From the NCBI GenBank assembly GCA_001824135.1, contig MHWM01000032.1:1-35718 (forward strand): a stretch of 35,718 nt of DNA, written 5' to 3'. Positions within the stretch are counted from its first letter, which is position 1, and each line of letters opens with the position of its first letter. A program made the translations under genes and the position numbers. The notes under the pieces were generated by a model. The model was not told where the DNA came from and did no database searches. It saw only the letters and a list, made by a program, of their open reading frames with translations. Source of the stretch: Candidatus Zambryskibacteria bacterium RIFCSPLOWO2_02_FULL_39_14. GTDB lineage: Bacteria; Patescibacteriota; Minisyncoccia; Phycocordibacterales; Zambryskibacteraceae. Positions 28,334-31,702 of this stretch are shown one piece after another.

Positions 28334-29671
28334 TTACTTAACTGGTAATTGTTTTATGGTAATTCGTGAACCATCCGAAGGGAAAGATTTTTTCCAAAAT
28401 GGTCTTATAGTGGCTGTGGCCGATATTACAGTTGGATAATTATTAAGTATAGAAGAGATATATTTCTTAGGTTTACCGACAATATCAGTCTTCAAAGACA
28501 CTTCATCAGTACGCCACACTACCATAGTATCACCCGTTACAGAGAGGTGAATCTCATCTGCATTTAGTATATCTAGAGAAGAATCATCGGAGAAAGAAAG
28601 TGTAAGTAATTCTGGCTCTAGAATATCAACAGATTCACCGGGAGCAAGAGTGATCTTGCCTAAAGAAAGATAAGTAGATAAATCACTTCTTTTAAACATA
28701 ACACCATACAAATTAGCGCGCCTATTAGCTACAACACGGCCTGGAGTAGCAGAGTCCGTTTGTGGTAAGTCTTCGAAAATAATAAAGGAAAGCGACGGGA
28801 AAAGAATCAAGTCTTTAGGTACTTGAGCTATAGCATCTGAAATAAGTTCAGCTCTTAAAGATGTCTCTAGTTCATTTTTGACTCTTAATCTGTCTTGTTC
28901 ACTCACTATTTTTTCTTTCCCGACAAAACCTCTAGACATCTCTGTTTTAGAGCGGGCATAAACTGCGGTAAATAAGGAAGTGCCTTCAAGACCCGGTAGA
29001 GTAAAGTCTGTGAGACCAATATTATATTCCTTTCCGGGATTTTCTGCATAAACAGTAACCTCCAAAGAACCTGGCTGTTCACTACCATTTACCACCTTTT
29101 TTGCAGGCACAACTATAGCATCTTCGACTTGGTAAATTTTACCTTCTGGAGTTTCAAAACGAGTAGTTGCTCTAAATCTTTGAGACTTAGTGCTACTGTT
29201 GTAGACCACTATTGTACCGCTTGCTTTACGACTCACTTCTTCTTCTCCAGAAGCCAAGACTTCCACTCCTTTGTCTTTGGAGAGTTTAGCTACACTATAT
29301 GAAAGAGTATCATTACCTGTCTTTTGTGCGATAAAAGACTCATTTTTCAAAGAAAGAGCAGAGGACTTAGGTACGTAAGAGAGTGTTGCCCCGTTAAAAA
29401 TAGAAAGCAATATAAATATAAGTACTAAAAGAGATACCCCAATACCCCACCAGAAACCTTTCCTGGTTTTTTTTATGCTTGGCGGTTTAACTTCTTCTTG
29501 TGATATGTGAATACTATCGCGTGGAACCGCAGAAGAATTATATTCTTTCATTATAAATGATGAAGGTGGCTGTTCTCCATTTTTCCTGCGATTTTCTGGA
29601 ATTGGTATATCTCTTATACTTCTTTTTCTCTCTGGTACTATAATATCTTCAATTTTTTTCGGCATGTACAA
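28334..29671 (-). CDS. hypothetical single-pass membrane protein with large extracytoplasmic domain (445 aa)
   Basis: Basic cytoplasmic N-terminus, one TM (FWWGIGVSLLVLIFILLSIF), and about 350 aa of beta-rich sequence. No motif recognised. Confidence 0.5.
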   Translation of the reverse strand: MYMPKKIEDIIVPERKRSIRDIPIPENRRKNGEQPPSSFIMKEYNSSAVPRDSIHISQEEVKPPSIKKTRKGFWWGIGVSLLVLIFILLSIFNGATLSYVPKSSALSLKNESFIAQKTGNDTLSYSVAKLSKDKGVEVLASGEEEVSRKASGTIVVYNSSTKSQRFRATTRFETPEGKIYQVEDAIVVPAKKVVNGSEQPGSLEVTVYAENPGKEYNIGLTDFTLPGLEGTSLFTAVYARSKTEMSRGFVGKEKIVSEQDRLRVKNELETSLRAELISDAIAQVPKDLILFPSLSFIIFEDLPQTDSATPGRVVANRRANLYGVMFKRSDLSTYLSLGKITLAPGESVDILEPELLTLSFSDDSSLDILNADEIHLSVTGDTMVVWRTDEVSLKTDIVGKPKKYISSILNNYPTVISATATIRPFWKKSFPSDGSRITIKQLPVK

Positions 29672-29680
29672 AATTATAAC

Positions 29681-30898
29681 CTATTTTTTAAATTTCTGCC
29701 CACTGCTTTTACGTGATAGTTCCTGATGCTCTTTTAATTGCTTATAAAACTTATCTTTATCCACTATCCCCCCTTTCTCTCTAGCAATCTCTTCAGTCAA
29801 TTCTATAGGGAAACCGTACGTAGTAAAGAGGATAAATGAATCCACCCCTTTCTCAAATTGCTTCAGACCTTCTCTCAAAGTCTTTCTGAATTTATTTTCT
29901 TCAGCAAGAATCTCTTTTTCTATTCTTTCGCTAGATTTTGCAAGTTCTGGATAAATATCTCTGTACTTTAAAATGACACTGCGAGCCACGTGAAAAAGCT
30001 CTCCGGGAGCAATACCTAAGATATCGGCATAGCGCACCGCACGGCGAATAAGACGTCTTAAAATATATCCTCTGCCAGTATTAGAAGCAATAACACCATC
30101 GGCTATCATGAATACTGATGTTCGTATGTGGTCAGAGACAATTCTCTCTGCCTTTTCTTCTGAAACTGAAGAAATATCTTTGATCCTTTTTATAATAGAT
30201 TCAAAAAGATCTGTCTCGAAAGCACTCGACACACCTTGAGTCACAAAGGTCAGACGTTCAAGACCCATACCAGTATCTACTCCTCTAATTTTAAGAGGTG
30301 TAAGTTCCTTATCTCGACTTTGGTAATATTCATTAAAAACGATATTCCAAATCTCAATTCCTCCTACATATATTTCTGTAGTCGGGCCACACGGACCTTC
30401 TTCCCCCGTCGGTCCCCAGAAATTATCTTCTCTGCCAAATTTTTTTATAATAATACTAGAGTCGATGGACTTCCAAATATCAGCAGATTCTTTGTCTTCT
30501 GGAATATTATCTGCGCCACCGAAGACAGAAATAAAATCTATCTTCAATCCAAAATCTTTAGTAATAAGTTCATGGGCATATTCGATGGCTTCTTTTTTCC
30601 AATAACCACCAAAACTGAAGTTGCCAAGCATTTCAAAAAAAGTGAGATGGCTCTTGTCTCCAACCTCTTCAATATCAGATGTACGCACACACTTTTGAGA
30701 AGAAGCTACATTAAGTGAGTTTAAATCTTTTTGAGCATCTGCCTTGCTTATGTAATACGATTTGAACTGTTGCATCCCTGCTGTAGTAAAGAGGACTGAC
30801 GGATCGTTCTTGGGTACAAGTGAAGCTGAAGGAATTATTACATGTGCCTGTTTTTTAAAAAAATCTAAGAATTGTTTACGAATTTCTCTGGATTGCAT
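29681..30898 (-). CDS. alaS: alanyl-tRNA synthetase, N-terminal aminoacylation/tRNA-recognition domain only (405 aa)
   Basis: IRKQFLDFFKKQAHVIIPSASLVPKNDPSVLFTTAGMQQFK, HLTFFEMLGNFSFG, GPCGPTTEIY, IEIWNIVFNEY, VDTGMGLERL, GRGYILRRLIRRA and TTYGFPIELT. It ends at ...EHQELSRKSSGQKFKK, which aligns (from memory) to about residue 455 of E. coli AlaRS. No editing or C-Ala domain follows. Confidence 0.88.
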   Translation of the reverse strand: MQSREIRKQFLDFFKKQAHVIIPSASLVPKNDPSVLFTTAGMQQFKSYYISKADAQKDLNSLNVASSQKCVRTSDIEEVGDKSHLTFFEMLGNFSFGGYWKKEAIEYAHELITKDFGLKIDFISVFGGADNIPEDKESADIWKSIDSSIIIKKFGREDNFWGPTGEEGPCGPTTEIYVGGIEIWNIVFNEYYQSRDKELTPLKIRGVDTGMGLERLTFVTQGVSSAFETDLFESIIKRIKDISSVSEEKAERIVSDHIRTSVFMIADGVIASNTGRGYILRRLIRRAVRYADILGIAPGELFHVARSVILKYRDIYPELAKSSERIEKEILAEENKFRKTLREGLKQFEKGVDSFILFTTYGFPIELTEEIAREKGGIVDKDKFYKQLKEHQELSRKSSGQKFKK

Positions 30899-30922
30899 TC
30901 AATGAATATAACATAAAAAGCG

Positions 30923-30944
30923 AGCCCGACATCAAAGTCGGGCT
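30923..30944 (-). terminator. candidate intrinsic terminator/attenuator hairpin directly upstream of alaS
   Basis: An 8-bp GC-rich stem, AGCCCGAC (30923-30930) / GTCGGGCT (30937-30944), with a 6-nt loop. On the - strand it is followed by CGCTTTTTATG. It ends 24 nt before the alaS ATG. Confidence 0.5.
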
Positions 30945-31060
30945 GTGAGATCTTTCCAATGTTCAGAAAACCACCTGAGAACAAGGGCAATTCTGTACAG
31001 AATCATCGATCGGGACATGAGTATCCACGGTCGATCTGTGACATCGTTGATCAATTTCAT
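30932..31060 (-). CDS. candidate small ORF / leader peptide (42 aa)
   Basis: Hand translation gives MKLINDVTDRPWILMSRSMILYRIALVLRWFSEHWKDLTARL*. It is preceded by GGAGGG 3 nt from the ATG. The stop codon lies in the loop of the terminator hairpin. There is no homology evidence. Confidence 0.3.
   Translation of the reverse strand: MKLINDVTDRPWILMSRSMILYRIALVLRWFSEHWKDLTARL
30990..31003. repeat. perfect 14-bp palindrome ATTCTGTACAGAAT inside the alaS leader
   Basis: Read directly from the sequence. It could be a protein operator or a small RNA hairpin. Confidence 0.4.
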
Positions 31061-31076
31061 AATCCCTCCGGAATCA

Positions 31077-31104
31077 TTTATACCATAAATATTAATTTTG
31101 GCAA
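31077..31104 (-). promoter_or_regulatory. candidate sigma70-type promoter for the alaS leader
   Basis: The - strand reads TTGCCA (31099-31104), a 16-nt spacer, then TGgTATAAA (-10 at 31077-31082 with an extended TG). The predicted start is about 10 nt upstream of the small-ORF ATG. Confidence 0.45.
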
Positions 31105-31117
31105 ATAAGACACCATT

Positions 31118-31702
31118 TTAAAGATTTTTAAGTACTTTAAAATCCTCTTTTAGAGTGTCGAGTAAATGCTGATTATAAATAGCGGCAGCGGGATGGTAGA
31201 GAGGCGCTACTTTAAACTTGTCGGTAGTAAACACTTTTCCATGAAGTTTACTTATGGAATCCAATTCAAACTCTAATCCGTAGCGACTCATCACGTATTG
31301 CATAGAAAATCGCCCAAGAGTGGCGATCACTTTCGGCTTAATGATTTCAATTTGTCGATCAAGAAACGGCGCATATATTTCTATCTCATCAGGAAGAGGG
31401 TCACGATTACCGGGCGGGCGGTCCTTTACGATATTTGTCACATAAACATCTTTTCTCTCTATACCTGCGGAGACAAGAAGTTCATCGAGCACTTTTCCCG
31501 CCCGCCCGCAAAACGGCCTACCCGTCTTGGCTTCATTCTCCCCCGGCGCCTCACCTATAAACATTATCCAAGCAGAATGATTGCCCTCTCCTATTACAGG
31601 GAAGTATTTATTTTTAATTCGTTCTTTATATAAAGGCGAGCTCACAAGACCCAGTATCTCATCTTTTATCGCTTTTAGTGCCCTCTCTTTTTCGTTTATC
31701 AT
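31118..31702 (-). CDS. uracil-DNA glycosylase, family 4
   Basis: The family-4 motif FIGEAPGENEAKTGRPFCGRAGKVLDELL and a C-terminal HPAAAIY. The start ATG directly abuts the upstream stop (TAGATG). Confidence 0.85.
   Translation of the reverse strand: MINEKERALKAIKDEILGLVSSPLYKERIKNKYFPVIGEGNHSAWIMFIGEAPGENEAKTGRPFCGRAGKVLDELLVSAGIERKDVYVTNIVKDRPPGNRDPLPDEIEIYAPFLDRQIEIIKPKVIATLGRFSMQYVMSRYGLEFELDSISKLHGKVFTTDKFKVAPLYHPAAAIYNQHLLDTLKEDFKVLKNL

Follow-up and report, generated by a model that had tools for sequence, protein, structure and literature searches.

The UDG-alaS locus and the elements of its spacer

The window, by which we mean the whole stretch of 35,718 nucleotides analysed here, is contig C32 of a genome of 484,814 bp that is 98.6% complete and has a GC content of 38.8%. 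On its minus strand a gene for a uracil-DNA glycosylase (UDG) is followed by alaS, and between the UDG stop codon (31118-31120) and the alaS ATG (30898-30896) lies a spacer of 219 nt, whose features are collected in Table 1 together with the flanking genes. The encoded alanyl-tRNA synthetase (AlaRS) contains the class-II aminoacylation domain only, with neither an editing nor a C-Ala domain, and its match to TIGR00344 covers model positions 1-431 of 847. Open frames for alaS in relatives (L010-L038) range from ~380-430 aa to ~540-590 aa and possibly include upstream sequence. A 445-aa ORF downstream of alaS (28334-29671) matched no model in Pfam or NCBIfam. Of the 30 same-genus loci fetched, 26 keep the order UDG-alaS, as do many metagenomic loci; AlaRS identity to the closest relatives is only ~65%. 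The length of the spacer varies across relatives from ~9 nt to more than 600 nt, and many have only 18-19 nt.

Table 1. Features of the UDG-alaS region, with positions in the window
Feature	Position	Strand	Basis or remark
UDG gene, family-4-type uracil-DNA glycosylase, 194 aa, upstream neighbour	31118-31702	-	Pfam PF03167, E 1.1e-32
-35-like hexamer TTGCCA, 16 nt upstream of TATAAA	31104-31099	-	read from sequence
Extended -10-like TGGTATAAA of peptide cassette	31085-31077	-	read from sequence; last base A, consensus T
GGAGGG, 3 nt (att) before ATG, ~7 nt after -10	31069-31064	-	read from sequence
42-codon ORF, peptide MKLINDVTDRPWILMSRSMILYRIALVLRWFSEHWKDLTARL	31060-30932	-	ATG at 31060; likely divergent member of UDG-alaS peptide family
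Perfect 14-nt palindrome ATTCTGTACAGAAT	30990-31003	.	inside ORF, codons I-L-Y-R-I
Intrinsic terminator (predicted)	30944-30915	-	8-bp stem, 6 GC pairs, 6-nt loop, CGC, TTTTT
alaS promoter, extended -10 TGTTATATT	30913-30905	-	motif in 49/62 upstream sequences; geometry enriched genome-wide
alaS, short form, 405 aa, predicted leaderless	29681-30898	-	PF01411, E 4.9e-120; relatives align from residue 1

An earlier note on this DNA had described a promoter, a small ORF, palindromes and a terminator on the minus strand of 30899-31117, and all of these elements are present in the sequence. Its description of the spacer as visibly GC-rich overstates the difference: against a genome value of 0.39 the spacer reaches only 0.42-0.45 in 100-nt windows, and the interior of the UDG gene reaches 0.58. 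The promoter TTGCCA-16 nt-TGgTATAAA can likewise be read exactly as quoted, but a scan for consensus promoters did not list TGGTATAAA because its hexamer ends in A and not in the near-invariant T. The upstream hexamer TTGCCA is not conserved in relatives, where the corresponding stretch is the 3′ end of the UDG gene. The 42-codon ORF opened by GGAGGG-att-ATG is confirmed, with the peptide as it had been given, and the cassette transcript is predicted to begin at GGAGGG or close to it. When the spacer was shuffled, an ATG-initiated ORF of at least 42 codons arose in 530 of 5000 sequences (10.6%), whereas one of that length led by GGAGG arose in only 1 of 5000; two ORFs longer than the 42-codon ORF occur on the other strand of the spacer. 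The GC stem-loop and U-run reported to enclose the stop codon are also where they had been placed. The hairpin AGCCCGAC/GTCGGGCT occupies 30944-30923 with the TGA stop (30934-30932) in its loop, and the T-run at 30919-30915 begins 3 nt after the stem.

The 14-mer palindrome exists as noted, but does not appear to be a functional element. Perfect palindromes of this length number 69 in 485 kb, or ~0.03 per 219 nt, and an apparent genome-wide excess of palindromes was an artefact of N-runs. Because ATTCTGTACAGAAT occurs once in the genome and is not present in homologous cassettes, we judge it to be a chance occurrence and reject it as an operator.

The alaS promoter and predicted leaderless expression

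The same note had argued that the leader leaves no space for alaS to have a promoter of its own, and that alaS expression would depend on read-through. The sequence from the T-run to the alaS ATG, TATGTTATATTcattgaATG, shows otherwise, as it contains the extended -10 element TGTTATATT with 6 nt between its end and the ATG. This element is conserved in relatives. Of 62 distinct sequences upstream of alaS, 49 have a motif of the form TGnTAnnnT, mostly TGnTATATT, 6-7 nt ahead of the ATG, and it is kept in loci with and without an insert, including those with spacers of 18-19 nt, which are essentially the motif itself. Distant Paceibacteria have a weaker version of the pattern, with the motif at 6-7 nt in 24 of 77 loci.

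The geometry of this promoter recurs throughout the window's genome. The pattern TGnTAnnWT ends 6-9 nt before the first ATG in 43 of 512 long ORFs, compared with 7 of 2459 internal ATGs, and SD-like 4-mers show no enrichment in the same genome (5.5% at gene starts versus 7.4% at internal ATGs). Examples of an extended -10 of the TGnTAnAAT type near an ATG can be seen in the 15991 region of the window, at C16:14290 and at C22:3537. Leaderless mRNAs thus seem to be a major mode of expression in this organism. The conserved extended -10 close to the ATG and the genome-wide geometry together make alaS look leaderless, and the locus is most simply read as a leaderless gene with its own promoter, with the A of the ATG at 30898, or a neighbouring base, as the predicted start of its mRNA. 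The earlier remark that alaS lacks an obvious SD is borne out and fits this reading, since a leaderless mRNA, as predicted here, accounts for the missing element; its absence is normal for a genome that would start many mRNAs at the ATG. Because the promoter lies downstream of the terminator, the proposed requirement for read-through fails, and alaS is independent of it.

The spacer peptides and the variable contents of the slot

The small ORF of the spacer is probably a divergent member of a rare and lineage-restricted peptide family of ~12 members and 36-57 residues that had not been described before. Its members share the core LLI(K/R)RQLWRY(R/K)AV..YRR..DF..DL. Searched with a profile, 1.84 billion representative proteins yielded only ~9 such small proteins, and a search of 5.8 billion proteins recovered the same set and one more. 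Each member that was looked up sits between UDG and alaS in Zambryskibacteria-like CPR/Patescibacteria. Within the genus the cassette is present in 3 of 37 genomes, always at the UDG-alaS locus; in a 300-genome sample of the order the peptide profile gave chance-level matches only, and a DNA similarity search of 40 relatives with the spacer gave chance-level short matches only. The family is under purifying selection and is positionally fixed. For the close pairs that are not saturated, dN/dS is 0.22 (L134/L221) and 0.32 (L015/L132), dS being saturated for more distant pairs. Pairwise nucleotide identity at codon positions 1, 2 and 3 is 0.42, 0.59 and 0.33 in an amino-acid-guided alignment, a procedure that itself favours positions 1 and 2.

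The members also share an architecture. In all 11 that were examined, GGAGG is preceded at 5-16 nt by an extended -10-like motif of the TGn type, in most cases matching TGnTAnAnT, and all 11 have a GGAGG-like motif 4-7 nt before the ATG, a spacing from which transcription would be expected to start at about GGAGG. In every member the ORF ends at a GC hairpin with a T-run and the alaS promoter follows directly; the stop codon of 7 of the 11 lies within the hairpin, that of the other four 0-2 nt ahead of it. Searches of Pfam, NCBIfam, PHROG and PDB sequences with the peptides returned neither a family nor a solved structure, and PADLOC gave one weak match for one member (E 0.015). For a toxin role, which the earlier note had raised, there is no evidence. 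Our best guess at a function is a nucleic-acid- or protein-binding amphipathic helix that acts with the product of a neighbouring gene. The peptide that the window ORF would encode is basic, and AlphaFold models it as a single long helix spanning residues 11-41 (mean pLDDT 72.6).

Whether the window ORF belongs to this family depends on more than sequence similarity. Among 20,025 six-frame ORFs, phmmer found a single non-self match, the ORF just after UDG in L059, at E 0.077. A leave-one-out HMM built without the window placed its ORF at rank 2 among the non-training ORFs of the same set, with a marginal E of 0.45, the best non-training match being another ORF from a UDG-alaS spacer; BLASTP of the window peptide against L015 found nothing. 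The window ORF does share the position and layout of the family, its extended -10, GGAGG, ORF and terminator following the UDG stop and preceding the alaS promoter, and the spacing of its core is ungapped relative to the other members. Since the sequence scores taken alone are marginal, it is the common position, size, ungapped core and architecture that make homology quite likely.

The peptide cassette is one of several kinds of cargo at this site. Where the spacer of a relative is long, it contains a GC-rich insert in which GGAGG leads an ORF that is followed by a terminator; other relatives carry nothing. The GC content of genes in the slot is 0.44-0.57 compared with ~0.39 for the genome, and the cargo differs between species. 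Beside the peptides it includes Cys-rich CxHP...CxxC proteins of ~80 aa (L010, L014, L016, L028, L035), proteins of 73-75 aa (L033, L041, L046), a 170-aa protein that appears MaoC/hotdog-like by eye (L013) and an extra gene of ~411 aa that appears aminopeptidase-like by eye (L011, L040, L042). The interval between UDG and alaS thus behaves like a hotspot for variable cargo. Elsewhere in the genome, contig C2 has at ~13.5-14.8 kb on the minus strand a cluster of GC-rich ORFs (0.51-0.62), among them a 194-aa ORF with AAGGAGGcatcATG and a 55-aa ORF; it may be another accessory island.

The GGAGG that precedes these ORFs occurs in a lineage where its usual partner appears to be lost. The 16S rRNA of three same-genus relatives (L216/G013, L217/G041, L219/G044), the peptide gene being present in one of them, ends in ...GGAGUAAUUCAAUU and not in ...GGAUCACCUCCUUA, with no CCUCC nearby. 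These 3′ tails were located with the Rfam small-subunit rRNA model, the 16S of the window's own genome being unassembled, and no 16S 3′ end carrying CCTCC turned up when that exact pattern was searched for. By eye, no 23S is apparent within ~600 nt downstream of 16S in L216, L217 or L219; in L219 a tRNA-like and a protein-coding-looking sequence follow instead, and the rRNA genes may be unlinked. Loss of the anti-SD has been reported for part of Parcubacteria (PMC9297842). That GGAGGG acts as an SD sequence in the window is doubtful because the 16S rRNA of relatives lacks the anti-SD. All cargo ORFs in the UDG-alaS slot nevertheless keep GGAGG, which may be left over from transfer out of donors that use SD, may be due to the sequence at the start site, or may reflect a contact with rRNA that does not involve the anti-SD. 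A conserved GGAGG before accessory ORFs in a lineage without an anti-SD is a concrete and testable puzzle. A comparable layout, TGnTAnAAT, 6-7 nt, a purine-rich GGAGG-like motif (AGGAG/GAGGA/GGGGG), 4-10 nt, ATG, with GC of 0.47-0.49, can be seen at C18:16020 (-), C19:18146 (-), C26:14615 (-) and C4:3571 (+); the genes are mostly small, with membrane- or lipoprotein-like products of 38-71 aa, and the ORF at C4:3571 has 276 aa.

Alternative readings and comparison with known systems

We favor, with a probability of roughly 0.68, the interpretation that the spacer holds two transcription units, namely a peptide cassette belonging to a rare family and a leaderless alaS with its own promoter. The first would be a small monocistronic unit in which transcription from the extended -10 TGGTATAAA yields an mRNA with a short 5′ end at about GGAGGG, from which the 42-codon ORF would presumably be translated up to the stop codon in the terminator loop. 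The second would be the leaderless alaS mRNA, transcribed from TGTTATATT. Between them the predicted terminator would stop both the peptide unit and any transcription that arrives from the UDG operon, immediately ahead of the alaS promoter. The observation that drew attention to the spacer was therefore largely real. The interpretation attached to it as an attenuator is unsupported, and the fallback of an independent small protein with its own terminator is supported by the conserved peptide family, apart from the suggestion of a toxin.

Several other explanations share parts of this evidence. The stop codon within the hairpin, or 0-2 nt before it, together with the presence of the cassette only directly upstream of alaS and a GCC (Ala) codon in the 5′ arm of the window hairpin, would suit a translation-coupled attenuator of the pyrBI kind, in which a ribosome entering the arm or loop of the terminator blocks the hairpin and read-through varies with translation or Ala-tRNA. 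This we consider improbable. The gene to be controlled has a conserved promoter downstream of the terminator, most genomes of the genus do without the cassette, and many have a spacer of only 18-19 nt. The peptides show neither a run nor an enrichment of Ala codons (2 of 42 residues in the window peptide; 0-5 in family members, never in runs), the conserved core is separated from the hairpin by anything between 4 and ~20 codons, and no alternative antiterminator fold is conserved. Classical leader peptides need no purifying selection on the peptide sequence, and it is just such selection that is seen here. As the stop codon lies inside the hairpin in most members, termination that is sensitive to translation is nevertheless possible as a side effect. 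One could go further and propose that the GC-rich cassettes keep a 5′-terminal GGAGG that acts without an anti-SD, as for instance a 5′-end translation signal or a transcription-start element, and that the stop in the hairpin makes termination dependent on translation; as a combined proposal this is speculative and rather unlikely. A further reading takes the window copy to be a decaying relic, a homologue of the family that has ceased to be expressed or to function here. Of all members this copy diverges furthest, with SRSMIL in place of the family's RRQLW, its coding GC of 0.44 is the lowest in the family and the closest to that of the genome, its HMM score is marginal, and its -10 ends in A, so that the copy may be weakly expressed or decaying. 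Yet its reading frame is uninterrupted, the copy still has GGAGGG and a terminator and its core is free of gaps, and on balance we hold decay to be unlikely; a second assembly (L039) that is 99.8% identical over 5 kb with zero changes in the spacer is too close to inform.

The spacer could finally be a non-coding or cis-regulatory RNA, such as a small RNA, a riboswitch or a T-box, with the ORF incidental. The unit from promoter to terminator is ~155 nt long, it folds somewhat better than shuffled sequences (z = -2.34; 4 of 200 as good) with the terminator contributing to this score, and chance ORFs of such length are common. Checks for known and shared RNA structure on the minus-strand leader, which the earlier note had proposed, speak strongly against it. 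At gathering scores Rfam has no match in the whole window, and at E <=10 the matches in 30850-31170 are driven mostly by the terminator, the best scoring 22.3 bits against a threshold of 46; none of them is a meaningful match to an RNA family, T-box included. ARAGORN found no tRNA or tmRNA in the spacer. For nine homologous cassettes RNAalifold gave a consensus of -0.81 kcal/mol with 6 trivial pairs and no helix that competes with the terminator, and conservation tracks codons and amino acids. We regard an RNA element as very improbable. SRP or 6S RNA in the spacer was considered and dropped on the coding signal, the lack of shared RNA structure and the absence by eye of an SRP-like motif or rod-like fold. 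Across the whole genome (98.6% complete) the Rfam models RF00169 (bacterial small SRP) and RF00013 (6S) matched nothing at E <=1, and these RNAs may be divergent, unassembled or absent there.

The reading as a peptide cassette followed by an independent alaS promoter defines a very narrow small-protein family tied to one genomic slot in CPR bacteria. To our knowledge almost nothing is known about small proteins and gene regulation in these tiny-genome organisms. The finding is nonetheless a modest one and changes no major open question.

Comparison with characterized systems helps to place the locus. Like attenuators of the trp/his and pyrBI types, the spacer has a promoter and an ORF of ~40 codons whose end overlaps a terminator upstream of a gene of biosynthesis or translation. 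It differs from them in that the gene downstream has a promoter of its own, conserved and located beyond the terminator, regulatory Ala codons and a conserved antiterminator are lacking, selection acts on the peptide sequence and most relatives do without the element. The T-box riboswitches of Firmicutes also lie upstream of synthetase genes and end in a terminator; the spacer gives no T-box match even at E <=10, and its transcribed region is too short at ~155 nt and has no conserved structure. Putney and Schimmel reportedly found in 1981 that E. coli alaS is autoregulated by AlaRS binding to a palindrome at its promoter. Here, too, alaS has palindromes upstream, but the 14-mer is ~90 nt upstream of the alaS promoter, inside an ORF, unique and not conserved. 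Leaderless mRNAs from extended -10 promoters that abut the start codon are well known in Actinobacteria and Deinococcus-Thermus, and alaS resembles such genes in having TGnTAnnnT 6-7 nt before its ATG, with no predicted 5′ UTR and no SD; the difference is that the host is a CPR bacterium of the Parcubacteria type whose relatives have 16S rRNA without an anti-SD, and that the transcription start is predicted from sequence. The contents of the slot, for their part, invite comparison with moron- or cassette-like accessory genes. They are unlike these in that PHROG gave no matches and PADLOC only the weak one, and in that the peptide family seems to have been kept at one locus by vertical descent. 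They are like them in being self-contained units of promoter, gene and terminator that occupy a single intergenic slot, the contents of which vary.
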